The notes beneath the pieces were generated by a model that worked only from the letters and a program-made list of their open reading frames with translations, had not been told where the DNA came from and ran no database searches. DNA of 64,000 nucleotides from Corythoichthys intestinalis (lineage: Eukaryota): positions 29,762,661 through 29,826,660 of the forward strand of contig NC_080410.1 in the NCBI RefSeq assembly GCF_030265065.1, written 5' to 3'. Of this stretch, positions 13,255 through 52,224 are shown piece after piece (positions within the stretch are counted from its first letter, which is position 1; every line of letters starts with the position of its first letter). A program made the translations under genes and the position numbers.

Positions 13255-13800
13255 GTTATATAGTTGCAGTGAATGAGGCTAGCTGCCGCCTGACATAAAC
13301 AGCTTTTCTGGCGAAAATTATTGTGAATAAATGCTTCGATCCCCAAATTCTTGATAGATACGGACGTAAAACAGCCTCGATTCTTAGTTAAAAGCAAAAA
13401 AACGTGCAGTTCGCATTTATTTTACGTAAATATGTCGAAGTACAATGCTAGCCTGTTAGTGAATGCAGCTAGCAGCCGCCTTATGTAAACAGAGCTATTC
13501 TGGCAAAAATTCTTGTGAATAAATGCTTAAATCCCTGAATTCTTCATAGATATGGATGTAAAACAGTCTCGATTCTTGGTTAAAAGCAAAAAAAAATGTG
13601 CAAATAGCGTTTATTTTACGTAAATATGGCGAACTATGATGCCAATGCAGTAGCGGCTGATTTCTCCCATTGATTTTTTTCACAACGTTTAAAAATGCAT
13701 GCATGGTACGAAAAATATAACAGTTACCTTGAATCCTCGAACGAATCACTCCTGAGACAATCCTTCCTGTTTGTATGCGGTACAGCTTTCGTATTTCTTC
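13255..13800 (-). repeat. Composite interspersed repeat, copy 2 (reverse orientation; 2 tandem units plus 5' module), in mettl23 intron 1
   Basis: Reverse complement of units and 5' module of copy 1 (for example 13700..13800 is the reverse complement of about 1800..1915). Confidence 0.65.
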
Positions 13801-17739: not shown

Positions 17740-18600
17740 CAACATAGACTTCATAATGGTATTGACGGGTCAGATTGGTCATGCACTGCGCCTCGCATTC
17801 AAGTAGGGGGCCGCCCACATCTAGAGGAGCTATTTACAAACACGCACGCAGCGATCTACCGCTGGATTTCTGCAAAAAAGCACAAAAGCTGTACCGCATA
17901 CAAACGGGAAGAATTGCCTCAGGAGTGATTTGTTCAAGGATTCAAGGTAATTATTATATTTTTCGTACCATGCATCCATTTTGAAACATTGTGAAAAAAA
18001 TCAATGGGAGAAATTGGCCGCTACTGCATTGGCATCATAGTTCGCAACATTTACGTAAAATAAATGCTGACTGCACGTTTTTTCTGCTTTTAACCAAAAA
18101 TCGAGACTTTTACTTCCATACATACATAGGGCGGCCGCTAGCTACATTCACTAACAGACTAGCATTGTACTTCGACATATGCACGTAAAATTAATGCTAA
18201 CTGCATGATTTTTTTTTATGGGGGGGGGGGTTTATAACCAAGAATTGGGACTGTTTTACGTCCATATATATAAATAATTTGGGGATTTAAGCATTTATTC
18301 ACAAGAATTTTCAACGGAAAAAGCTCTGTTTACATATGGCGGGCGCTAATTTCCTTACTGACTAGCCTCATATGTTGCAATATTTACGTGAAATAAATGC
18401 TACCTGCACGTTTTTTTTTTTTTACGTTTTAACAAAGAATCGAGACTGTTTTACATCCATATCTTTAAAGAATTCAGGGATTTAAGCATTTAATTACACA
18501 CATTTTCAGCGGAAAAAGCTCTTTGTCTGTGATTCCACTCGTTCAGCTTTAACGGTCTCGCCAACAATGCAGGCCCCCTATTTATCGGCTCCGCGCCCTG
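17740..18600 (+). repeat. Composite interspersed repeat, copy 3 (full architecture), in the mettl23-casc3 intergenic region
   Basis: Collinear with copy 1 from the 5' module through tandem units (17990..18500, with a G11 run at 18225) to the 3' module gcaggcccccctatttatcggctccgcgccctg. Confidence 0.7.
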
Positions 18601-21343: not shown

Positions 21344-21661
21344 GTGAGTAGTTAGCTCGGGGCTAATGTTAGTTTGCCCGCCAGCTAGGCGGCTTCCCTG
21401 CGACGAATGTCGTCGCAATTAATCAAATGGAATTTCTTCCAATTCCAGCTTTAATTGAAAGTAGCCCCTGTCGTTTAGGATTTAATCACAAAATGTCAAT
21501 CGTGTTAAATAAAGCATAAATCTGTTGGTGCGATCTTACTTTCGGGACTTCGTGGTCCTTCTGCGTGACGTCACACTTTGTTTACGGCCGCTTGCCGACT
21601 TACCTGCTTGATGTTTAGTCGTCATCTTGGGCGTAAAGGTTTGTTTGTGTCCTCTTTTCAG

Positions 21662-26772: not shown

Positions 26773-26955
26773 AAACACTTCACGTTTTCCGATTCCATCT
26801 GGTGCTTTTTAGTTCAATGAAGCACCGTCACATTTGGCGGAGGATGAAAACTTGGATTTGATTGGAATCGGTTTGCCTAATTCAAGATGAAATGTGAAGG
26901 TTTTCTTGCATTCTGTAATAAGTTGTGTAATGTTGTGACATTCATTTGTGTGCAG

Positions 26956-27650
26956 GCCTGGCGTGTCCCCCAACAGAGAGCAGCAGCGATGGCGGGAAGG
27001 GGCAGAGCGAACGCCGCGCTCCTGGCAGAGCAGTCGAGGTGGAAGGGGTGGCGGGACACCCCGAGGCGGCCCCCCTCATCATGCGTCTCCTGCTTCCATC
27101 CCACAATCGTATGGCCAGCGGGGCGGAGGCGCCTCCCGCAGCCGAGGCCCCCGCCTTCCCGCCCGACACGTGCCAGAATCGCACGTTCATCAGCTTCATC
27201 CGAGGGAACGAGCGCTTCCCAAAGGCTCACCCGAGCCGGCGGCCGATGAGGGGAGAGCCATCGAAGACCCTCCGCCGGGCAAAATCGGTGACGAGGAGCG
27301 CGCCCAGAGTAGCTCCGGGCCATCCCTTGAGCAAGCGACATCGCCGGAGCAGCGAGGGGGCGCCTCTTCCACCCGCGTACAGCACGCGTCGGCATCCCCC
27401 CGGGAAGCCTCGCCTCCTGCCGAACGACCAATAGAGCGCAAGTCCTACTCGCTGGCCCGGAGGAGTCGCTCGCGGCCATCCGAGCCGGGCGGCAAGCGGA
27501 CCGTGTCGGTGGAGGAGGCGGCGGCCCCCGAAGATTCGGGGATGGGTGGGGGCGCGGAGGAGTTGGACCGGGACGTAGCTCGGCTGAGTCTTGTGTCCGG
27601 GCGGACTTGGAACCAGAGCCCAGCCTCGTACGTGCACCCGGAGATGAGAG
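26956..27650 (+). CDS. casc3: casc3 coding exon 7 (large GC-rich exon)
   Basis: Frame of ORF 26948..27733. Contains PIERKSYSLARRSRSRPSE (human PIEKKSYSRARRTRTKVGD) and ELDRDVARLSLVSGRTWNQSPASYVHPEMRG (human LEQDVAQLNIAEQNWSPGQPSFLQPRELRG). Acceptor tgtgtgcag| and donor AGA G|gtaaga. Confidence 0.88.
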
Positions 27651-28804
27651 GTAAGACTTGCACATTATTCAAAATGGGATCATTTGATGACGGAGTGCCA
27701 AAATTTTCTATTATATTGAAATACAGTATATAAAAGCATTCTTAAATCTATACAAAAATTTGGCACTCCTGGTCCTTAAAGGAACCTGTGTTTTAAATTA
27801 CCTGTTAACTCTTTAATCCTTAAAGTGCCTGTGACACGAAAAAGCATGTTTATTTCATAATACACGCGGTATTTTATGCTCCTGAATGATATGGACCGCT
27901 TGGATGTGTGTGGAAGCGATCGCTATATTTATTTAGTTTTTTGAATCCCGCGCCAGGAAAATGAGTGACTTCCGGCTTCGGTCTTGCACTGAGGAGGAGG
28001 GCGCTGTGACGTGTACGGTAGAAGACGTCCTCTTCACGCTACAGTGTACTGTTGTGTATGAGGACGAAAGATTCAGCGGATTTTGCGGATTAATACGTTT
28101 ATTTTTCGCATCACGCCAGCCAAACGGCTGCGGAAAAATCATTCTGTATGAGGGAGAGGCGTATGCGCCTTTTTGGAGTTTCAAAAGGTTCCCATTCACC
28201 GTGGATATTTACTGTGGGACCATTGGACTTACGATGAAGTGAGGAAACATCTTGTTTTGTATTATGTCAAATACGAATACAGCGATTACAAAGTAAACAC
28301 TACAAACTTCCTTTAAATGAAGGACTACTTACGTTTGATCATTGATAGGCATGTAAAAAGCTCTCCTAATGCATTAGCAGCAGCACGTTAGCTGCGTTAG
28401 CTCCAGCCACCCTCCTCCGGGGAACGAACTGTAAATTGAACTCCGCCGGGTGGTTTGCCGATCCGCTAAGACATTCGACAACCGGGTCGTCATGTCAAAT
28501 AATCCAGGATAGCTATGTGTGATTTTCCGCTTTGAAGACTTTGAAACATCACTCTGTTCGGGTTAGCATGTCGGCTAGCTGTCACGCCTTCTGGTTTGTT
28601 TACATTCTCCGAAGCCGGGGAAGGGAAATGACATATGTCCGATTTAGGTGTCATAAAATATTGTTCGGGAGGTGCGACAGTAAAGGTGAAGTCGACAGTT
28701 TTGACCATTATGGAGTAATTTTGCCATGTCGTCCTGAATAAATGCATTTTTATTATTTCATATTCCATTCAGCACAAGACTGTTATTTGTCATGACGATG
28801 CCAT

Positions 28805-30700
28805 TTATTTAGCAATTGGGGAAAATAATAATAATAATAATAACAATACATTTTATTTATAGCGCGCTTTTACCGGTGCTCAAAGGCGCTTTACAGTTGA
28901 GGAAGAAAATAAATAAAGCTCACACAATGTGGGCAGTAGACAATAGAGAAAGAATTACAAATTAAAAGCTAGTTTAAAAAGATGAGTTTTTAACAATTTT
29001 TTGAATGTGGAAATATTAGAACAGGTGCGGATGGTTTTAGGGAGTGCATTCCAAAGTGAGGGGGCAGCAACGGAGAAGGCTCTGTCCCCCCAAGTACGGT
29101 GTGTTATTTGTGGGGGCAGTGCGAAAATGTTTCCATTAGATGAGCGGAGGTGACGGGAGGGGGTGTGGGGACAGAGAAGGGCCGTGAGGTAAGGAGGAGC
29201 CAAGTTATTGAGTGCTTTGTATGTCAGAAGGATGATTTTGAAATGTATCCTGTGTGAGATGGGAAGCCAGTGCAGTTTGTGAAGGACGGGGGTAATGTGA
29301 TTCCTGTAGGGGGTACGGGTGAGAAGGCGTGCAGCGGAGTTCTGGATATATTGTAGTTTTTTGAGGAGTTTGGCTGGAGATCCAAAAAGAATGCTGTTAC
29401 AATAATCGAGTCTGGAGGTGACGAATGCATGTATGAGGGTTTCTGCAGCAGAGTAGGTGAGGGAGGGGCGGAGACGGGCTATGTTCTTGAGGTGGAAGAA
29501 GGTAGTTCTGGTTATGTGGTTGATGTGCTGGTCGAATCTTAGTTTATTGTCGAAAATGATACCTAGGTTGCGGGAGTGTGTTGAGAGAGGGAGGGTGCAG
29601 TTGTCGATGGTGAGGGTGAATTGACTGTTATTTATGTGAGCTGTAGGGTCTATGATGATTATGTCCGATTTGTTGCTGTTAAGTTGAAGATAGTTAAGTT
29701 GCATCCAGGATTTGATTTCGCTGAGGCATTTGTGAAGTGTAGATTTGGTGCTGTGTGAGATGGTTTTAGTGGAGATGTATATTTGTATGTCATCGGCGTA
29801 GCAGTGGAATTGCAGTCCAAATTTTCGGATGATCTGACCAAGGGGGAGGATGTAAAGAATGAAGAGGAGGGGGCCAAGAACTGAACCTTGGGGGACACCT
29901 TGTGCTATGGAAATAGCAGGGGACGTGCAGTTGTTAATGCTGATGAATTGTTGTCGGCCGGTGAGGTAGGAGTGGAACCAGGAAAGTGCAGTGCCAGTGA
30001 TGTGTAGAGACTCTAGTCGGGAGAGCAGAATGGTGTGGTTGATTGTGTCAAAAGCAGCAGTGAGGTCCAGGAGGATGAGGATGGTGAGTTGTCCGGAGTC
30101 CGCGGAGAGTAGGATGTCGTTGGTTACTTTGAGAAGTGCTGTTTCTGTGCTGTGTTGTGAGCGGAAGCCAGATTGGAGAAGTTCAAATAGCTTATTGTCG
30201 GTAAGGTGGGTTCGGAGTTGTGACGCAACTGCCCTTTCCAGAATTTTTGATAGAAAAGGCAGATTTGAAATGGGTCGGTAGTTGGTCGGGATATCGGGGT
30301 CTAGACCAGTTTTCTTTATGATCGGCGTGATGGCAGCCAGTTTGAGAAGTTGGGGGACAGAGCCAGAGCGGCGGGAGGTGTTAATGATATCAGTGATAAG
30401 TGAGGAGATGACGAGGAGACAGTCTTTTATTAGAGCAGAGGGAATGGGATCTAGGGTGCAGGTGGCAGTTTTCATTCCAGACATAATGGTTTCAAGTTGA
30501 GTGGATGTTATTGGAGAAAGCTCAGTGAGTTCCTGGATAGTTGTGGGCGTAGAGGCAGATGGCGGGGAAGGGGAAGGTGGAGCAGTAAACTGGATCCTGG
30601 AGGTGTTTAGGTTACTGTAAATGTTGTCTATTTTTGTTTGGAAAGATGAGAGAAATAATAAACACTTTTCAGGAGTGAATGAAGTAGAATACTTCAAATA
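28805..30700 (-). mobile_element. L2/CR1-like non-LTR retrotransposon (LINE), 5'-truncated, in casc3 intron 7, antisense to casc3
   Basis: ORF 28955..30697(-) of 580 aa has reverse-transcriptase motifs (LLDLTAAFDTI, FHCYADDIQIYIS, SRNLGIIFDN). The 3' end on minus is a short microsatellite (rc of aataataataataataataacaat at 28825..28850), typical of L2-clade tails. Confidence 0.8.
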
Positions 30701-32690: not shown

Positions 32691-34308
32691 GTAAGCCCAT
32701 GAGGATCGGGGGCCAAAATGTTAAAGGGTATGTCTTGCCCTGGGAAAATGTTAATATTCCATCATTTATCCATAAACGCATGCCTTTTGTATTCATATCA
32801 TGCCACTTCGTGTAATTACACACAAGAAAATGAGAGAAATTTGGCTCGATTGTCAAGCTAAAACGACCGGCACCCGATCTGGCAGATTGTGTGTGTGACG
32901 TCATGACAAGTGAAGAGAGTGCCACCGGCCACTAGGGGGGCAGCGCCTGTCTGCATCAATATAATTCCTTCTAGTGAGGGGAGAATTAGGGGTGTTTTGA
33001 GCTGTTTATGCTGATGCATTGTGTTCGTCCTGCACATATTCCAGGTTCCCTCATGAAGAAACACCCCTCGTTGGTAATAAAAAAATTCAGAATTGACAGT
33101 GAGGGGTGTTTCTTCACCCCTCACTGTGAAGAAAAAGGCTCAGTGCTTTAATACTGAATGGCGGCGATGATGGCAGACAATTTCGTTTCTAGTTTCAGCG
33201 ACGAATCCGACGTAGAAGGACGTAACGAATGTTCATCTAATGGTGACGAGGAGAGTTACGAAGCTTTAATCGGTGTTTTAGGTTACCAATTTGAGCCCAA
33301 ACGAACGCCAATGCAGCGTAATGAAACGGTCATTGAGGGGAGCAATGACACTGATGAAACATTGGCAGCAGATCGTGTGGGAAACACCAATGATTTGTTT
33401 TGCATTTCTTTTTGTGAAGCTGATACACCGTGACTGCAAAATAAAGGAATGCTTAGAACAATTATCATTTATTGCGCTATCATAGCTTTTCGCTCTGCCA
33501 ACAGACACAAATATGAATGGGATCAGAGGATTTGTTCTATATATTTTACGAACGATAATTTATACATGTGTCCAGTCCTGTATCCAATGCGTGACATTTT
33601 TTTATTATAAAAGAGTACTCACTCTGGCCATTTCGAGCTTGGCTGCTCCCCTCCTTTGCTTAGCCTTAGCCTCCTTTGCCACTCATCGTCCTCTTTCTTG
33701 ATATCTCGGGACATTTAGGTAGCTGCGCGTGTATGGTCGGCACCGCATCTCCTTTGAGCAGCAATCTTTTAGCAAAATCCGATTTCACTTGTCCATAGTT
33801 CGAGAAGCTTTCAGGTGGAAAATGCGCACCACAGAAAAGCGTGCCGGAGGCTGTGTCTAGAAAATTAGCCCTCCTTGCACGGACGAACTTTACCCATTGT
33901 CTGCGTAGTCCAGCTTTTTTTTTCGCGTTCGGGAACTCATGGATACTATATTCCGATAAATATTTGTACACCACATAGCACAGCAGTTTTGAACCATTTT
34001 TGTGATGTTTTTGTCAAACAAACCCCAACGCTAATCTCTCGTCGTTAAAAAACAATGGCACCTGGCTCCGCCTCGACTGTCAATCACTTGTCGTGACGTC
34101 CCCGCCCCATTCGGCTGTTTCCGGAACACTTTCGGGAATGTTTGTCATTTTCAATCTATTTTCGATAATTGCTCATTAATGTGATTGATTTTTTTTTGTT
34201 AACTTTATCAATATTTGTTATCTTGGCACATAACGGTTCTATTGATGTCTTACACCCCCTTTGCCGCTACATACCCTTTAAGATGATGACGTCCTTTTCT
34301 ACATTTAG

Positions 34309-41100: not shown

Positions 41101-41507
41101 TCAGGCTCCGAAACGGCCGACGTCGGCAAGTCCGTCTTCCACCTTGCGGTGCGTGCGTGCATGTTTCTTGAGTGTGTCGCCATCGCTGAAGGTGCGGCGA
41201 CACACGCCGCAGCGGTACGGACGTTCGCCCGTGTGGATGCGCACGTGGCGCCGTAGGTTACCTCTCTGGCTGAAGCTCTTGGTGCAGAAGGTGCAGCGGT
41301 GCGGCCGCTCGCCCGTGTGCGTGCGTACGTGTCGCCGCAGGTCTGCCGACTGCGCGAATGATTTGCAGCACCAGTCGCACGCGTAGGTTTTGCGCTTCTG
41401 TTCCAGGTGTAGGCAAAGACGAGATGCCTGGGAGAAGACTTCGCTGCAGCGGGGGCACTCGTACACCGAGGCGCCTGCCGCCGCTGCTGCCGTCTCGCCA
41501 AAATGCC
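41101..41507 (-). CDS. Terminal exon of the same ZNF gene: 4 C2H2 fingers, stop at 41103..41101. Acceptor follows a T18 tract: ttttacccgcag|GG.
   Basis: (G)HFGETAAAAAGASVYECPRCSEVFSQASRLCLHLEQKRKTYACDWCCKSFAQSADLRRHVRTHTGERPHRCTFCTKSFSQRGNLRRHVRIHTGERPYRCGVCRRTFSDGDTLKKHARTHRKVEDGLADVGRFGA*. Has canonical C-x2-C-x12-H-x3-H spacing and TGERP linkers. Acceptor phase (needs 1 nt) matches the phase-1 donor of the 50243..50465 exon, so the predicted protein is about 210 aa. Confidence 0.5.
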
Positions 41508-42105: not shown

Positions 42106-43734
42106 GGGGCCAGCCCCCCCGTGGTGGCCTAAAAGTGTAATTGCATGTTTTTGACTTTCCTATATATATATATATAAAAGTTGTAAAGCAATAAAACTGC
42201 AACAAAAATGAAATGAACAAAAACACATATTTTTATAATGGGTCGAAATTATTTTTCAAGCACCTTTGTCATTTGCTTTGCATATAATTTAAAATATATA
42301 CTAGAGAAAAAAATATTTTTTTAAATGATTTTTTTCTCTAATTTTTTTTTTTTTTTTGATTGAAGCAACTTTTTGGGGGATTGAATGATTTAGACACAAA
42401 TGTCTTAATCATAATATGGCCCAAACAAAAAAAAGAATTGCTTCAATCAAAGAAAACTTTTTCAATGAAAAATTAAGTGTTCAAATGCAAATTTTTCAAT
42501 CTCAAATATTTTTTCGCATTCAAAAACTTTTTCTATGGTTGAAATTGTTCATTTTTTGATTGAATTGATTTTTCTTTTTGAAAATATTTTTTTAAGCAAC
42601 TTATTTTTTGATTGAATAATAAAAAGGGGATATAATTTTTTACCGTGGTAACTACATTGGCACGACACTGGCGTGCGTACCAAATTCAATGGATGATGAT
42701 CTTGGCGATAAGTATTGCCTAAGCAGCCTGATTTAGAATTCCCCTCAAGAATGATGGGAAACAAAAAACGTTCGTTGTCAACTTATTATTTTAAATATTC
42801 TTGTAAGTTAATTTGATTGCTGACACTGTGTTTTGGGTTCATCAACATGCTGTGCCCCCTCCGGCCCCAAAAGTCAAACTCCGCCTGTACAAAGAACTGT
42901 CTGAGGACTTGAGAAGCAAAATTGTGAGGAAGCATGGGCAATCTCAAGGCTACAAATCCATCTCCAAAGACCTGAATGTTCCTCTGTCTAACGTGTGCAG
43001 TGTCATCAATAAGTGTAACGCCCATGGCATTGTGGCTAACCTCCCTAGATGTGACATATTTGTCCAGTGGTTTGATTTACAGCAACTGAAAAACACAATG
43101 GTATTGAAATCACGCCACGACTGAATCGGATCCGATCTTGTGACCAAATAAGATAATTTCCGATACTCCACAATAGCCGTCTCGGGTAAAATTATCGCAG
43201 TTAAGGTGAAATGTCAAAGATCCGCAGGCATTTTGTGTAGGAAGGTGACTTTTTGGAATTGTTTGGGGATAGTGACTTGGAATTTTGAAAGAACTTAACG
43301 ACATAGACAAGCTCAGTTTTAGCTAACAGCGCAGCCTCGACTTGAGTCGGTTCATTTCCGTCCATTACCGTTTCGTTCCAGTTCCTCTCGCCCACCGCTC
43401 CGGACATCCTTCAAGGAACTGACTTGCGCCTCACGTTTGAGGGGCGTGACCTGGGGGTCCACCTTTTCACTTTTGATGACAGGAAGGGGCGGGACTGCGG
43501 GTTCATTTCGGAGCGCCGGAAGAATGAGCGTATGTTTGGGAGGGGTCTGGTCTGGACGGGTGAGAGGAGACGTCAAGACAGACACCGACACCCGCTCGGG
43601 CGTGCTTGGCGGGGGCGCTTTCACGATGTCGGGAACGCGGGCTTCCTCCGGGTTCCCAACGACCAGACGCTTGCTAGTACCTGAAAGAATAGGAGAGCAT
43701 CAAAAGTCACAAAACGTGACTATTGCAAACATAC

Positions 43735-45046
43735 CGTATTGGCCCGAATATAAGACGGTGTATTTTGCATTAAAATAAGACTGAAAAAGAGGGGGTTGTC
43801 TTATATTCAGGGTCTAGACATTATACCCATTCACGACGCTAGATGGCGCCAGATATCATTGAAGCGATGTTCTTTCATGACAGATCTCAGCTACTCTCCC
43901 CATTCACGATGCTTGATGGCGGCAGATATCATTGAAGCGATGTTCTGTCATGACAGATCTCAGCTACTCTCAAGTTTAACCAGTTTGCATTATTTTATTG
44001 CAATGTTTTTCCTTATTCACATTTGTTTCAAGAATACAGTTACAGTCAGACTTCACTTTGATGGTTTATGTAGTTATTGCAATTTTCTTGTTTTGTCACA
44101 ATAGATTGGTTTATTTTAGGGCTGTCAAACGATTAAAATTTTTAATCGAGTTAATTACAGCTTAAAAATTAATTAATCGCAATTAATCGCAATTCAAACC
44201 ATCTATAAAATATGCCATATTTTTCTGTATATTATTGTTGGAATGGAAAGATAAGACACAAGATGGATATATACATTCAACATACGGTACACAAGTACTG
44301 TATTTGTTTACAATAAATCAACAAGATGGCAATAACATTATTAACATTCTGTTAAAGTGATCCATGGATAGAAAGACTTGTAGTTGTTAAAGATGAATAT
44401 TAGTATAGTATAGTATAGTTATAGAAATTTTATATTAAAACCCCTCTTAATGTTTTCGTTTTAATAAAATTTGTAAAATTTTCAATCCAAAAATAAACTA
44501 GTAGCCCGCCATTGTTGATGTCAATAACTACTTACACAATGGTAATGGATGCTGAAGCCAATAAAAGCAGTCGCACCCGAGCGCCAGCAGAGGGCGGAAA
44601 AACTCCATAAAACACAATTAACAAGTTGGCCTTTCACTATACTGACATTTAAATCTGTCTGAGCGGGGCTAGTGCGTTAATTGCGTCAAATATTTTAACG
44701 TGATTAATTTAAAAAATTAATTACCGCCCGTTAACGCGATAATTTTGACAGCCCTAGTTTATTTACATTTCAAAAACCAGGAGCCATTCATTTACGAATG
44801 TGATTGCACTTTAGTTTACAGATTTAAATGTGCAGATATTAAGATTTAAATGAGGCAAAATGACATGCTTTTTCTCTCAAATATATTGTTATAATCATTT
44901 GTTTCGGATGTACTGTAATTATTTTCTGTATAAAAATTAATTTGATGTTCAAAAAGTCTTTTTTTCAAACTTGAGTCTTGAAAAAGAGGGGGTCGTCTTA
45001 TAGTCAGAGCTGTCTTATATTCTGGCCAGTATGGTACTTCACCCAT
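43735..45046 (-). mobile_element. Long-TIR MITE family 2, second copy (opposite orientation), carrying nested MITE family 1 copy 2
   Basis: Termini taccgtattggcccgaatataagacgg... and ...cttatattctggccagtatggta. Internal sequence is collinear (reverse complement) with 22700..23290, including the duplicated cattcacgacgctagatggcgccagatatcattgaagcgatgttct block. Confidence 0.7.
44119..44755 (+). mobile_element. MITE family 1, copy 2 (about 640 bp), nested inside the long-TIR MITE at 43735..45046
   Basis: Same termini as copy 1 (gggctgtcaaacgattaaaatttttaatcgagttaattacagc ... taattaccgcccgttaacgcgataattttgacagccc). Internal sequence is collinear with copies 1 and 3. Confidence 0.75.
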
Positions 45047-45376: not shown

Positions 45377-46215
45377 GTACAGTGTATCACAAAAGTGAGT
45401 ACACCCCTTGCATTTCTGCAGATATTTAAGTATATCTTTTCATGGGACAACACTGACAAAATGACACTTTGACTGTCTGTGTGCAGCTTATATAATAAGA
45501 GTTAATTTATTTTTCCCTCAAAAAATTGTCATTGGCTTGTCATTTTCCCTCCAAAATGTCATGTGACTCCTTACAGGAGTGCTGTCAGCATTGCTGCAGA
45601 GATTGAAGAGGTGGGGGGTCAGCCTGTTAGTGCTCAAAGCATACACTGCCCTCTACATCAAATTGGTGTGCGTGGCTGTCACCCCAGGAGGAAGCCTCTT
45701 CTGAAGACGGTACACAAGAAAGCCCGCAAACAGTTTACTGAAGACATGTAAACAAAGCACATGGATTACTGGAACCATGTCCTAAGGTCTGATGAGACAG
45801 GTAATGACTATTCTAGCTGGAAACGTCCGGTTTTAATGCAATATCTACGTAGTTTTGTACAGAGGCCCATTTACAGCAAACATCACGCCAGTGTTTTAAA
45901 GGTACATTGTGGTTGCTAGTTGCCTTAGAAGGATAATAGATGATTAGAAAACCCTGTACAATTATGTTAGCACAGCTCAAAACACTTTAGGTGGTTAGAG
46001 AAGCTATTAAAACTGATCTTCCTTTGAGCTAGTTGGGTATTTGGAGCATCACCTTTGTGGGTTTGATTAAACTCTCAAAATGGCCAGAAAAAGACAACTT
46101 TCATGTGAAACTGAAGTGAAGGCTATTCCATAAGAGAAATTGCCAAGAAACTGAAGATTCCCTATAACGCTGTGTACCACTCCCTTCAGAGAGCAGCACA
46201 AACAAGATCTAACCA
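45377..46215 (+). mobile_element. Tc1 family D, 5' half (TIR plus transposase N-terminal region)
   Basis: TIR tacagtgtatcacaaaagtgagtacaccccttgcatttctg matches 40598. ORF 45563..45751 and the HTH-region fragment near 46100..46210. Confidence 0.65.
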
Positions 46216-46306
46216 GTAGAGCTGGGAATCTTTGGGCACCTAACGATTCGATTACGATTCAGAGGCTCCGATTCGATTATAAAACGATTATTGATGCACC
46301 CCCCTC

Positions 46307-46337
<31 letters not shown>

Positions 46338-47084
46338 GTTTTGTACATTAGTTCCATAATTGTTCAAAAATACTCTCAGGCTAAACCAAATTACTATTTC
46401 AGTATCACGTTAACATATAGCAGTAAACAAATATACAAAAATAACAGTAAATAAAAAACTCCAGTCCCCATTCTGTATCAGCAGCTTTAAACTACATTCA
46501 ATTAATTTAATGTTGTGAATCAACCGTTAAAGTTGTTAAAATTGCTCCCGTTATTCCATAATTTCCCTTTTGTCTACTTTCGACATGTGAAAGTTTTAAA
46601 ACTATTTTAAAGATAGATTTAAGTCAATATTTTACCGATTTGGGAGTATTTTAGATAAAAAGTTAATTAGGTTCGCTTGGAAGGTTCGCTACAACAGCCT
46701 TGCACGGAAGTGTACTGCTTTAAGATGGCGGCTGTTTGCTAACGCTCGCATCTAGCTTTTTGTAGATGTTCTGCTAACGCTATCGAATCTATAATGCATC
46801 TAGTCCTATATAAATGATACCTACCGTAACATTATGTGGATGTACTTTGTAGCAGCTTTTCGGCAGCAGTCAGGTATGTTGTTGTGTTTTTTATCTCGTG
46901 GCATGAGTTGAGCTAGAGCCGTGAGTTGAGCATTGGCATTACCCGAGGGGCCGGGTAATGAGAAGCATGATGTTTAGCTACTCTCGCTCCGTTCTTCATT
47001 GTGCCGAAGACCGCGCGGCGCGCTGAGTGTGTTGTACTTTCGCTTTACTTGGCATATTTCAATAATCGGAATTTGGATGTTTGT

Positions 47085-47560
47085 GAATCAATTCAATTCA
47101 ATTCAATTTTATTTGTATAGCCCTAAATCACAACAACAATGTCTCAAAGGGCTTTACAGAAATGAAGCAACAAAAATGAATAGATACAGTTCAAGTCCTG
47201 GGTATCCCCTATCCTTAAGACCCTCCATGCCGGCAAGGAAAAACTCCAAAAACTCCAGAGTCAATTGGGAGAAAAATGAGAAACCTCGGGGAGTACCACA
47301 GTCAGGAGAGATCCACTCCCAGGACGGATAGACAGGAACCCCAGAAGTGCTAGTGGGAATTAGCAGGCGAAGTTACAGTCCGTAAAAATACAGTTGAATA
47401 AAGGAGCAAGAAGAGGTCCATCTAGCCAGATGAGACAGGGGAAGCAGCGAGGACGTCTATCCAGCCAGAGGTCCGGACAGTCAGGAGGCTGCAGCTGAAA
47501 AATAGCCCCTCCCCAGAGGGGAATCGTTCTCGAATCTTCCACGGCTGAATCGCAAATAAT
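47085..47560 (-). mobile_element. Possible 5'-truncated LINE 3'-end fragment or SINE, with an (aattg)4 tail
   Basis: caattcaattcaattcaattttatttgtatagccctaaatcacaacaacaatgtctcaaagggctttacag is similar over about 50 bp to the 3' terminus of the L2-like LINE at 28850..28880 (ttatttatagcgcgcttttaccggtgctcaaaggcgctttacag). Confidence 0.3.
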
Positions 47561-48876
47561 CTAAGAATCGGAAATTTTGCACACCTCTACTAACCAGAGT
47601 AGGAAGAGAAGCGGGAGGCCCCGCTGCACAACCGAGCAAGAAGACAAGTACGTTAACGTCTCGATTTTGACAAATAGATGCCTCGCTTGTCCTCATCTAG
47701 CAGCTTCATTAAATAGTACCCATAAAACGCTAGTGTCAATGTCGACAGTGAAGAGACGACTCTAGGTGCTGGTTTTCAGGGTTGCGTGGCAGAGGAAAAA
47801 GCTTTATCTGAGACTGGATAATAAAACGAAACAAATGTTTTGTATTCATAAACGTGTCCTCAGTTGATCTGGAAATAATGATCCTATTGCGTGTTATTAT
47901 TGACATATCTTTTTGCCACAAGATGGCAGGATGGGACTTAATGGTCTAAAGTGCTACTTATAGTGCTTCATTTTTTGTTTGACTTCGATTACTTTGATTT
48001 GTGGGACTGCCTGTGAAGACAGCATGAGAGATGGATGTATCCGCATGTCGGTGGAAATTAAACGCTGAGTTTTGGCTGAAAGAAAACGTATTCTCCGTCA
48101 ATTATTCCTATGAATGCGTCGTTAACCTGCAACCACCTCAACAATTTCCAACCTTGCAATGTCTTGACTATATTTTCTATTCATTTTGAAACTCATTTTA
48201 AAAATAAAAGTGTGGCTTTTGAAGGAAAACACAAAATTGTCTCGGTGACCCCAAACTTTTTAACGGTAGTGTATATAAATTATCAGTTTTTGTTAGCTGT
48301 TTGTGAAGTTTTGTGTTTGCACGTTACTTTCACTTACACCCTGTGTGACTCCTGGGGGCTAAGCCCACACTGTTTTCAAAACCTTGTGACGCCCCTAATT
48401 TTCTTGTTAAACAAAATCGAACAGCCCTAGCAAAGTTCCGGCTGAGCAGCGGTTTCTCCACCCTGGCTGCAAAAGCGAGGGAGCTTAAAGCTGGAATGTG
48501 AAGTAATTTCATAACATGCCAACTAGGGTCACAATTAAAGTAATTAAACATTGTCCAACAAATAAAGCAGATCCTGCAGCGCTCATACATATAAAATAAT
48601 AATATAAAAACGTTGGGGGGGGGGGGGGGGGTCGTTGATGGCTTTCTCCACTTTATTGTGGCAACAATAAGAAAACAATATAGTGTCTTGTTATGAGCGT
48701 TTTGTTGACAAAGGTATCGAACACACGACGTGCTTACAACTTTGTTGCTTTATTAACACATGGAGCTAACAATAGCCGGGGCTTTCGGCAGTAAGTGGCG
48801 TCTAATGACGTGAGGAAATGTAGTTTTTTCACACAAGCGAACGGATTACAAAGCACCACTTCAGTGTTGTCCCGAG

Positions 48877-48901
48877 ACTACATTTCCCATGATTCACTGC
48901 G
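48877..48901 (+). promoter_or_regulatory. Near-consensus ZNF143 (Staf) SBS motif ACTACATTTCCCATGATTCACTGCG
   Basis: Matches the extended SBS consensus (ACTACAaTTCCCAgnAtGCatTGCG) at almost every conserved position. An inverted CCAAT (gccgtcattggggcg, about 49610) and a GT-donor-terminated untranslated stretch (about 49150..49257, ...ttttcg|gtgagg) lie downstream. Confidence 0.45.
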
Positions 48902-50242
48902 TGACTTGAGCCGCTCTCTGATTCGCTGCGAGATTGACTCACTGCCAACACGCTTGCTGTCACCTGTCAGCGGCTCTCGCGAAACATAAACTAGAAGGCT
49001 ATCAAGCGATCACCGTGAAAGAAACGCCGCTACAAATGCAATGCAATGCTTGAAGCATGAAGGTGGAAATACATAATACAAATACAAATACAAATAAATG
49101 TGCACAAACTCACCGGCGGTGTAAACCTGCTGCTGTCAACGCTCTAGTAGGTCGCATTTCACAGCATTCTGCAGCGGTCTTCCTCGCCAGCTGTTTGCTC
49201 GCCATTCACGCTCGTTTGCATTTGATCGCTAGTCCGATACACTCCCGCTTTTTCGGTGAGGTCTTTTGTGTTTATTCGTTATTGGATCGTTTTTGTTCAC
49301 CGCTGTAAATAAGAGCACTGAAGTAATAGGTGTAAGTCGCCATTTCTGTTCAACCCGTTTTCTCCTGCTTTGTTTAGCGTAAGAAGCTAGGTTAGTGGCA
49401 GTCTTTTCTTTGTTCTTTTTCATGATCAGGGTTTAGTTAGCGGGTGGGGTTCAAGTGTAGATTCCTTTTGTTTGTTGTTTTGGCCTGGGCTTACCCTGAA
49501 GCCGCGCTTCATCTCCATTTTGTACATATTCATTGCAAGTTTGATTGTTGTGTAAATAAATTTGTGCCACTTGTGAAATTGTGTGGCTCGTTTTATGTTA
49601 CGCCCTTCGCGAGCCGTCATTGGGGCGTAACACTAGCGAACATAACAACAACTATGATCGATGATTGCCACGAGTTGGCTTTCGGCTAACGTCTAGCTTC
49701 TACTGTACATTTCACAACAGTTGGCAGCTCTGCTTGACAAAGTCATCAGTCATCTATCCAAAAATCACACTTACTTTTTGGCAAATACTTGATCATAAGC
49801 AGACCGGTTAAGGAAGCAGGCATCTTCGAAGTGTTTGCAGCAGAGAAGACTACTTGATGATGGCGTGAAATTCATTCGCTTCGTGCGAACGAAAGATGTC
49901 CATTTACGAGCCCTGCTATCCTTTGGCCACTCATACAACTTTTCGTTTTAGTGAGAACAAAACATCGCCACACACCGCCGTGGCATCTTACCGAGAAGCA
50001 ATGCAACAAACAATACTGTTCTATGGCGGACTTCCCTCGCACGTCTAGGTGTGACGTAATTTCCGAAGATTGCCGAAGAAAAGCATTTTCGTTGTCAAGG
50101 GCGTTGCTATGGGTTAAACAAAGAATCTGGAAGGGTTGCGTTAAAAAAAAAATGAAAATATGCTTAGCCATTGATATTATTCAAAAACATGGTTGGCCAA
50201 CCTTACTTCACATTAATGCTTTAGGTGTTTGCTGTCCCTTAC

Positions 50243-50465
50243 CGGGAGACGGAGGCCGAACCCGAGGTTCGTCTGGCAGCCTGAGGAAGTCGCCGAGCTG
50301 CCGTCGCAATTTCTCGTTCTCCAGCCGCGTCCGTAGCGTCTCGTCTCGGTACTCGCTGACAGCGTCTTCCACCACGTCCACGATATCCCGCAGCAGCTGC
50401 GTAAGGCGCTCTGTCAGGTAACCGCTCAGCACATCACCTTTGTTCAATTGCCTTATTTTGCTCAT
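50243..50465 (-). CDS. Exon 1 of a teleost-type C2H2 zinc-finger gene (ATG at 50465 on minus; donor CCC G|gtaagg, phase 1)
   Basis: MSKIRQLNKGDVLSGYLTERLTQLLRDIVDVVEDAVSEYRDETLRTRLENEKLRRQLGDFLRLPDEPRVRPPSP(G). This resembles the conserved roughly 60-aa N-terminal exon seen on many teleost ZNF genes (L..ERL..A.EEI....E.TI.EYE.E..R...EN.RQR.LL), by recollection. Clean GT donor. Confidence 0.5.
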
Positions 50466-50689: not shown

Positions 50690-50995
50690 TAAAAGTGTCA
50701 TTAAAATGCTTCTATTTCAATATTTATTTATTTCTTTCAATATTTATTTCAAATTTTATTTATTTATTTCAATTTTTATTTATTTATTTCAATTTTTATT
50801 TATTTATTTCGATTTTTATTTATTTCAATTTTTATTTATTTCGATTTATATTTATTTATTTCAATTTATATTTATTTATTTCAATTTTCATTTATTTATT
50901 TCAATTTTTATTTATTTATTTCAACTTTTATTTATTTATTTATTTCGATTTTTATTTTTTTATTTCAACATTTATTCATTTCACTTTTTATTTAT
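50690..50995. repeat. AT-rich minisatellite, about 12 copies of a roughly 26-bp unit (tttatttatttcaatttttatttatt), 225-530 bp upstream of the ZNF exon-1 ATG
   Basis: Direct tandem periodicity visible in the sequence. ORFs 50695..51051 and 50706..51092 are artefacts of it. Confidence 0.85.
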
Positions 50996-52224
50996 TTCAT
51001 TCTTGCACTCTTGTTCCTCCGGAGAGAACAAGAGTGAGAGAACCTTATTGACAAAGGAAGCAGGTGGTTGCAATTACTGTTTTGTCCACTAAGTGGTAGC
51101 AAAAGAGTAATTTGCAGCTAGAATACGACAAAAAGTCACTTGTTTATTACTAATACCTACCACTTTGTCCCTATATGCCCAAAGTACCCCTTTTGACTGT
51201 TTTTATTTAATTTATTTATTTATTTTGCATATGTGTGTGCTGGCCTACTGTGCAGGCACGCCACTGAGTACTTTACTTGAACACCGAAAACACCTTTAAA
51301 AAAATAATTAATTAATAAATAAATAAAAGACGCTTTACACATTAGAGGTGTGCATCGGCACTGCCCTCACGATTCGATTCGTTTACGATTCGGAGGGCCA
51401 CGATTCGATTCGATTCAATTCAGAGGGTCACGATTCGATTCGGTTCGACTCGGCAATGCATCGCGATGCCTTAAAGCCTGGGACGCATTTAAATTCTAAA
51501 GCAAAGCATATTTTTCGTGAATCATGAGGCAACACAAGCGGTCAGACATTAAACAACTTTTTATTGGCTCTTGTGTCACTCCTGGTTGAAGTCAAATGAA
51601 AATACTTTCAGATATATATTTAAAAAAAACAACTGATCACAGCATTTAATTGGTGCTTTGAATGAGACCAGGGCTTTGTCTTTTTTTTTTTTTTTTTACA
51701 CACAGTAGCAGCCTTTCACACAGTGCAACATCTGAACTCCTGTGCAAAATCAGTAATAACAGTCACTGTATTTTAGTCACAGCGACCCATCAATAAAAAT
51801 ATTCAAGTAAATATTAAAGAAAACGACAAAGAAAATATTGTAGTGCAGCAGCATCTTTATCGCAATATTAATCCAGGGATCAGTTCAGTTGCAACAAAAC
51901 ATCAACTAAATTGCAATGTAGAACAAAAGTAAAATGTAGGCCTAACCCACTATATATGTGCAATCAACTTAGAAATGCAATCAGTAACTACCACATAACA
52001 ATAAAAAATAACGAATTAAAATGAAGTGCAGCATTTTAGCAGCCATAACAATCTGTTTCAACATGAGGAAATATCAGTTTTTTGCAATCGAGAGAGCAGA
52101 GAGATAGTAGAGGTTAGATCGGGCCTAAAAAATCCAGCCCGACCTGACACGGCCCGCTGGTATTGAAGCCCGACCCGGCGTGTCCTCCTGCTGAAGAAAG
52201 TACACGTCGAGGCCTGTCTGCGGT

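Follow-up and report, generated by a model that had tools for sequence, protein, structure and literature searches.

A ZNF143/THAP11-type SBS2 site in a zinc-finger gene intron of Corythoichthys intestinalis lies inside a Kolobok-like THAP transposon

A stretch of 64,000 nucleotides from the genome of Corythoichthys intestinalis (contig NC_080410.1, positions 29,762,661 to 29,826,660 of the forward strand) carries a near-consensus site for ZNF143 and THAP11 in an intron of a C2H2 zinc-finger gene, which the original prediction had proposed as a candidate cryptic promoter. The whole stretch is called the window here, and all positions are counted from its first nucleotide. The site belongs to the type SBS2 (SBS, Staf-binding site) and is genuine. 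It is probably cargo of a transposon, possibly captured promoter DNA, and not ancestral sequence of the intron. The transposon is a non-autonomous, THAP-bearing DNA element of Kolobok-like character, and the site lies in a 1.08-kb interior that is specific to this copy.

The site is the exact 25-mer ACTACATTTCCCATGATTCACTGCG at 48877–48901 on the plus strand, the position at which an extended ZNF143 match had been predicted. Two ZNF143 motifs have been described, the 18-bp SBS1 and the 25-bp SBS2, in which ACTACAN is added upstream (PMC3627581). From the SBS2 probe of that study, ACTACAATTCCCATTATGCACCGCG, the pattern ACTACANTTCCCANNATGCANNGCG with 20 specified positions was derived. The 25-mer agrees with the pattern at 19 of the 20 specified positions, the mismatch being a G-to-T change that turns ATGCA into ATTCA, and it is identical to the probe at 21 of 25 positions. 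With up to three mismatches allowed it is the only match in the window, and none of 100 dinucleotide shuffles produced one. The motif is therefore real and cannot be a chance match. Its 13-bp THAP11 part, ACTACANNTCCCA, is perfect at 48877–48889 and occurs only once in the window, and the 3' half of SBS1 (..ATGCANNGCG) is present as ATTCACTGCG with one mismatch, G to T. The ACTACA extension had been taken as the mark of a functional site. This argument is weak, since ACTACANNTCCCA is the binding site of THAP11 and ACTACAN, the THAP11 half-site, is dispensable for ZNF143 binding; SBS2 is also found inside human MLT1J retroelements, where the sites are occupied by ZNF143 in vivo (PMC3627581). 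On the minus strand at 2640–2666 there is a weaker SBS-like site, GACTGCATTTCCCATGAGTACCAGCG, whose 13-mer deviates at one position and whose 3' half is poor; a real promoter could be located there, close to the left end of the window.

The host gene is transcribed from the minus strand. Its coding exon 1 occupies 50243–50465 (ATG at 50465, last base at 50243, donor junction CCCG/GTAAGG), and the zinc-finger-encoding part of its last exon lies at ~41149–41466, with orthologs from Xenoophorus, Oryzias and Oreochromis that are 80–88% identical. The motif is situated between these two exons and is intronic, as predicted. The distance between exon 1 and the last exon is 8.8 kb in the window, compared with 1.3–2.2 kb in three other fish (L001 from Xenoophorus, L002 from an ENA contig and L003 from a Logan contig). 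These three zinc-finger loci show no match to 43.7–50.2 kb of the window and contain no SBS. The intron of the host gene is inflated by insertions, namely a Tc1-like composite, a 1.3-kb inverted-repeat element and the block that bears the motif.

The flagged interval (48840–49700) had been described as non-repetitive sequence, but it falls within a transposon bounded by inverted repeats. The whole element is 1732 bp long (48489–50220, minus strand) and is inserted at a TTAA in the orientation of the host gene, 20 bp inside intron 1 as counted from the exon-1 donor. The terminal inverted repeats are AGCTGGAATGTGAAGTAA (48489–48506, plus strand), which is homologous to the repeats of the copies L006 and L007 described below, and AGCATTAATGTGAAGTAA (50203–50220, minus strand). 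The 18-nt arms begin with AG and agree at 15 of 18 positions; the ends of the family repeat are written AG...GTGAAGTAA. The target-site duplication reads TTAA on the element's 3' side (48485–48488), and its other copy (50221–50224) is TTAG on the plus strand, or CTAA on the minus strand, with one mismatch to TTAA. An empty insertion site would be expected to read ...GGAGC TTAA/TTAG GTGTTTGC.... A TTAA-flanked inverted pair of comparable quality arose in 7 of 200 shuffles of the intron.

The 5' part of the element (49656–50202, minus strand) is conserved in the family and consists of a promoter-like region with TGACGTAA at 50052, a THAP-domain first exon and the start of an intron. The exon runs from 49986 to 49775 on the minus strand and encodes MPRRCVAMFCSH, a stop and NEKLYEWPKDSRARKWTSFVRTKRMNFTPSSSSLLCCKHFEDACFLNRSAYDQVFAKK (NEKLYEWPKD...FAKK after the stop), followed by a GTAAGT donor (49774–49769). 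The stop is a single in-frame TAA at 49950–49948. The exon matches Pfam PF05485 with an E value of 5.3e-6 and 27.5 bits against a cut-off of 23.9, and it is 89% identical to the relative P0121. The claim that no coding gene adjoins the motif thus does not stand, as this exon lies ~0.9 kb away. Since the promoter-like region and the THAP exon with its strong donor (49775–50220) share the orientation of the host gene and begin so close to its exon 1, they could supply the zinc-finger gene with an alternative first exon, or disturb its splicing.

When the THAP exon was used as the query, a word-indexed protein search returned no relatives, whereas a full HMMER search did recover them, as N-terminal THAP proteins that are 75–89% identical (P0121–P0124). 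The named relatives number six and are all syngnathid (four loci of Festucalex cinctus, one of Hippocampus comes and one of C. intestinalis); they include P0124, of 232 amino acids, and P0144. From the exons of P0121–P0124 the window has exon 1 only, and the AVPTIH box found in exon 2 of the relatives is missing from the window copy. Two further contigs, L008 and L009, contain downstream exons only, of another copy. Neither the 25-mer nor a degenerate inverted-repeat pattern had a match in the JGI metagenomes.

The window was compared with three genomic copies, two from F. cinctus (L005 and L007) and one from H. comes (L006). The 5' part (50212–49671 of the window) aligns with 9657–10209 of L006 at 85% identity, with 10041–10632 of L007 at 81% and with 5834–6346 of L005 at 73%. 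The 3' end (48569–48497) aligns with 12734–12806 of L006 at 92% and with 13600–13672 of L007 at 88%, with no match in L005; the conserved 3' subterminal part of the element is 48507–48575 on the minus strand, with the same identities to H. comes and F. cinctus. The boundaries of the homology in L006 and L007 coincide exactly with TTAA/AGGCCAARTGTGAAGTAA ... TTACTTCACAYTTGGCCT/TTAA. The AGGCCAAGTGTGAAGTAA repeat of L006 is perfect (18 of 18) with TTAA on both sides, and L007 also has TTAA on both sides. Because the homology ends exactly at TTAA and the repeats, the sequence comparison indicates that the block is a true mobile-element family, of which 48489–50220 is the window copy. The other copies measure 3.2–3.6 kb and contain further exons of the THAP protein, while approximately the first 550 bp and the last ~80 bp are common with the window copy. 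Just inside the 3' end, L006 (12590–12733) and L007 (13455–13600) have a conserved cluster that resembles a cyclic AMP response element (CRE) plus an ETS site (TGTGACGTATCAC…TTCGG), which points to promoter-like sequence at each end of the intact element.

The homology of the window copy to its family stops near 49655 and resumes near 48576. The segment in between (48576–49655) contains the whole flagged interval except its last ~45 bp, and it holds SBS2. Blastn gave no homolog of this segment in the other copies, in the other loci compared or in the rest of the window, apart from a poly-G run and short words that are not significant, and ACTACANNTCCC is absent from the copies L005–L007. SBS2 is therefore not part of what the transposon family has in common, nor does it stem from the ancestral intron; it is cargo of this copy or of an unsampled subfamily. 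No SBS is present in the zinc-finger loci L001–L003 or in the transposon copies L005–L007, a weak negative given how distant the comparison species are.

The interior also contains a second, inverted copy of the 11-mer ACTACATTTCC on the minus strand (48814–48824, 11 of 11 positions), which represents the THAP11 half of the site only and is separated by 52 bp from the main site on its right. In addition there are TCTCGCGA at 48975, a CRE half-site (TGACGT) at 48806, and two inverted CCAAT boxes (ATTGG at 49281 and 49619). Four GTRAGT splice donors occur within 1.1 kb over both strands, including a GTAAGT at 48791, where by our own estimate about one is expected. The candidate donors are placed at 48790, 49255 and 49331 on the plus strand and at 48943 and 49114 on the minus strand. 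Short units of an ATG plus a donor are found on both strands, for example on the minus strand with an ATG at ~49207 (MASKQLARK...) and a GTGAGT donor at 49113. In its content the interior is similar to part of a promoter of the housekeeping type together with a first exon.

Internally deleted DNA transposons often gain filler DNA by template switching during gap repair. The explanation that we favor is built on such an event. The element has kept the ends of its family, that is the inverted repeats, the promoter-like 5' region and the THAP first exon, now broken by a stop, and the family interior has been replaced by 1.08 kb of unrelated DNA that carries SBS2, most likely through interrupted gap repair with template switching. 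The new DNA would most likely be a fragment, taken from another genomic location, of a housekeeping-type promoter with its first exon, because the segment combines SBS2, the second ACTACATTTCC, TCTCGCGA, the CRE half-site, CCAAT boxes and splice donors. If chromatin allows, ZNF143 or THAP11 could bind the site and give rise to a weak bidirectional start site in the intron. Since its insertion the element has decayed: three of the 18 positions in the repeat arms no longer agree, one of four differs between the two target-site copies, and the THAP exon has acquired a stop codon. The differences in the repeats and the target site correspond to a change of a few per cent, at which about one substitution among the 20 motif positions would be expected from drift alone. 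The state of the motif thus fits neutral evolution, and its quality does not imply selection.

Four points weigh against this explanation. The fish compared at the host locus are perhaps too distant for an empty-site test. The observed/expected ratio of CpG is uninformative as a sign of a promoter, with 1.04 in the interior and 0.80 in the whole window, which is itself only weakly depleted of CpG. The captured promoter is argued from motif content, and the same motifs could belong to an unsampled subfamily of the element. Finally, no DDE or H2CH region of a transposase was found in the window copy, which has exon 1 only, or by Pfam in its relatives, and for this reason the element is called Kolobok-like and nothing more specific, a safe label that draws on the termini, the target site and the THAP domain.

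The third of these points leads to a different account, in which the interior is the normal sequence of a multi-copy non-autonomous subfamily and SBS2 belongs to a dispersed repeat. It is common for non-autonomous subfamilies to have unrelated interiors. In related fish the family has several copies, with at least four named F. cinctus loci in addition to those of H. comes and Corythoichthys and the Logan contigs, and the T2-MITEs (miniature inverted-repeat transposable elements) of the Kolobok superfamily offer a parallel for such a subfamily (PMC6004289). Short, weak similarities also exist between the interior and the element's own intron region, but they are not significant by blastn. Against this account, self-blastn revealed no second copy of the interior in the window, and none was found in ~100 kb of loci from other fish, 57 kb of them syngnathid. 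Moreover, the three copies for which both ends or the 5' end are sequenced carry a different interior. We regard a dispersed repeat as unlikely, without dismissing it.

Because the motif is too good for chance, a cryptic promoter or a ZNF143-bound site is a possible reading of the feature, as a candidate only. In its full form this reading holds that the ZNF143-bound site is an active promoter which, irrespective of where the DNA came from, gives rise in the intron either to a non-coding RNA that is not annotated or to an alternative first exon. Intronic transposon insertions are commonly silenced, which counts against activity. The near-perfect SBS2, the inverted ACTACATTTCC nearby, TCTCGCGA, TGACGT and the excess of GTRAGT donors on the two strands all speak for it, as does the occupancy of the human MLT1J sites in vivo (PMC3627581). 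However, the site is conserved in no comparison sequence, the region has no Rfam match, no tRNA and no significant folding, and the context cited in support of a promoter did not hold up. The GT-terminated stretch proposed at 49150–49257 does end in a donor (GTGAGG at 49256), but an equally good donor, GTGAGT at 49113–49108, lies on the opposite strand, so that the proposed exon is ambiguous in strand, and the stretch shows no unusual folding. An inverted CCAAT was reported near 49610 and is indeed present as ATTGG at 49619; at ~720 bp from the motif it is too far away to belong to the same core promoter. An active cryptic promoter is thus doubtful, about as much so as the dispersed repeat. 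Less probable again is the stronger proposal that the THAP transposon took up a working SBS2 promoter module and placed it 1.3 kb downstream of the zinc-finger exon 1, where it would now serve as a lineage-specific bidirectional intronic promoter or as a ZNF143 anchor.

A snRNA (small nuclear RNA)-type gene, transcribed by RNA polymerase III from a type 3 promoter or by RNA polymerase II, was considered as well. Here the SBS would act as the distal element and the small RNA would end at the T-run at 49249–49253. The SBS does lie ~240 bp upstream of a stretch of ~130 nt that ends in TTTTT, and TCACCGTGAAAG at 49010 is, in our own reading, loosely similar to a proximal sequence element (PSE). 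However, no TATA box is found at the right distance from the PSE-like sequence, and no Rfam family was detected with E values up to 10 on 48.3–50.7 kb or with gathering thresholds on the whole window. ARAGORN found no tRNA, including tRNA-Sec. The folding z-scores of 49113–49260 are +0.39 and −1.37 on the two strands, which gives no sign of a structured RNA on either, and the stretch (z-score +0.39) is conserved in no comparison sequence. A snRNA-type gene is largely refuted and is the least credible of the accounts weighed here, and the statement that no snRNA is recognizable next to the motif stands. A scan for bacterial promoters and terminators gave background levels and is irrelevant for this DNA.

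The site might instead serve the transposon itself, either as a binding site for the element's THAP protein or as an internal or antisense promoter. The element does encode a THAP domain, ACTACANNTCCCA is a THAP11 site (PMC3627581), and the 11-mer occurs twice in inverted orientation. On the other hand, the three other family copies lack the site, and it is not subterminal, being ~390 bp from the nearest end of the element. Among solved structures, the THAP domain of the element is nearest to those of THAP2 and THAP1, and THAP11 is not among the matches; a THAP11-like character of the domain is not supported by this comparison. A function for the element is accordingly very improbable, although it is not as remote as a snRNA-type gene. 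Transposon cargo, probably derived from a promoter, is the reading that we retain.

The classification of the element follows the description of the Kolobok superfamily, whose members have a TTAA target, AG termini and a transposase that contains a THAP domain, and which includes the non-autonomous T2-MITEs of Xenopus (PMC6004289). In the window element the target duplication is of the TTAA type, the inverted repeats have AG (RR) termini and a THAP domain is encoded; PF05485 is found in the window exon, in P0121–P0124 and in P0135. An assignment to piggyBac was rejected: a TTAA target is shared, but at the termini the element reads AG...CT instead of CCC...GGG, and it has a THAP domain and no piggyBac domain.

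A second THAP-bearing element of 1553 bp is located at 32725–34277 on the minus strand, flanked by TTAA at either end and terminating in AGGGTATGT. Its promoter contains CCAAT, Sp1 and CRE-type motifs, and its THAP open reading frame (ORF; 33666–33974, ATG at ~33996) is broken by a frameshift. At the DNA level it shows no similarity to the motif-bearing element, and the two THAP domains are 35% identical as proteins. A third match resembling the inverted repeats, at 21427–21454, was judged to be due to chance. A perfect TTAA-flanked inverted pair of 18 nt, ATGCTTAAATCCCTGAAT, is found at 13523–13540 and 18472–18489, ~5 kb apart and with more matching pairs nearby, and is probably another large DNA transposon that overlaps the METTL23 region. 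From our own reading of the translations, the window holds exons of JMJD6 and METTL23. A block of 58% GC at 26800–27800 contains long overlapping ORFs on both strands; adjoining it, at 28955–30697, a reverse-transcriptase ORF of 580 amino acids from a long interspersed nuclear element (LINE) is found on the minus strand, in a stretch with a GC skew of ~0.5.

The other two insertions in the host intron were also delimited. The Tc1-like composite occupies 45378–48275, with TACAGTGTATCACAAAAGTGAGTACACCCC as its left end and transposase fragments at 45563–45919 and 47577–47765. Nested in it is an insert with a run of 26 T (46308–46333) and promoter-like GCTAACG/AAGATGGCGGC motifs at 46.68–46.87 kb. 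The 1.3-kb element (43732–45036) has 25-nt inverted repeats, TACCGTATTGGCCCGAATATAAGAC, and a 73-bp tandem duplication inside (43826–43971). The zinc-finger protein encoded in the window stops after four fingers (…HARTHRKVEDGLADVGRFGA and a stop; 41101–41200, minus strand), whereas its orthologs add a fifth (…HSGEKPYRCARCARTF…), and the last finger of the host gene may be lost or frameshifted. A few hundred bases upstream of the zinc-finger exon 1 there is an AT-rich tandem array (50741–50997) with ~13 copies of a 20-nt unit.

For annotation, 48489–50220 should be masked as a transposon, and neither the THAP exon nor the GT-terminated stretch should be entered as a host exon without RNA evidence. 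In sum, a motif of known type is found in a new copy of a transposon of a familiar kind. Mobile elements are well known to bring in transcription-factor sites and so to contribute to regulatory turnover, and this motif is a further example. The moderately interesting possibility is the capture and mobilization of a promoter by a THAP transposon. If the site is active, it would be a clean and datable case of a DNA transposon that imported a housekeeping-type promoter module beside a host exon. If a subfamily bearing this cargo is multi-copy, it would provide a route for the spread of SBS2 sites through syngnathid genomes.

The capture of gene fragments and promoters by DNA transposons is known from Pack-MULEs and Helitrons, and we know of no documented case for Kolobok-type elements. 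As in those systems, intact transposon ends surround unrelated DNA with features of a promoter and first exon; the difference is that for this element we infer capture from motif content. A close parallel for the site is MLT1J, in which a full SBS2 also resides within a mobile element and is bound by ZNF143 in vivo (PMC3627581). MLT1J is a long terminal repeat (LTR) element with the motif in its repeat consensus; the present motif, by contrast, occurs in an interior specific to one copy of a cut-and-paste element, and the other copies lack it. Compared with the SBS2 motif, also known as the THAP11-Ronin/HCF-1 'M4' motif, the site has the perfect 13-bp ACTACANNTCCCA together with the 3' half ATNCANNGCG. 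It departs from the canonical motif by the G-to-T change in the ATGC core and by its setting, inside a DNA transposon, away from annotated or conserved promoters and not conserved across the species compared. With regard to the Kolobok elements, the copies described here measure 1.7–3.6 kb and show no DDE or H2CH region, in contrast to the 7–14 kb of full-length Xenopus elements. What they share with these, including the T2-MITEs, is the TTAA duplication, the inverted repeats that begin with AG (TTAAAG... together with the target), the N-terminal THAP domain and the presence of internally deleted, non-autonomous derivatives (PMC6004289).

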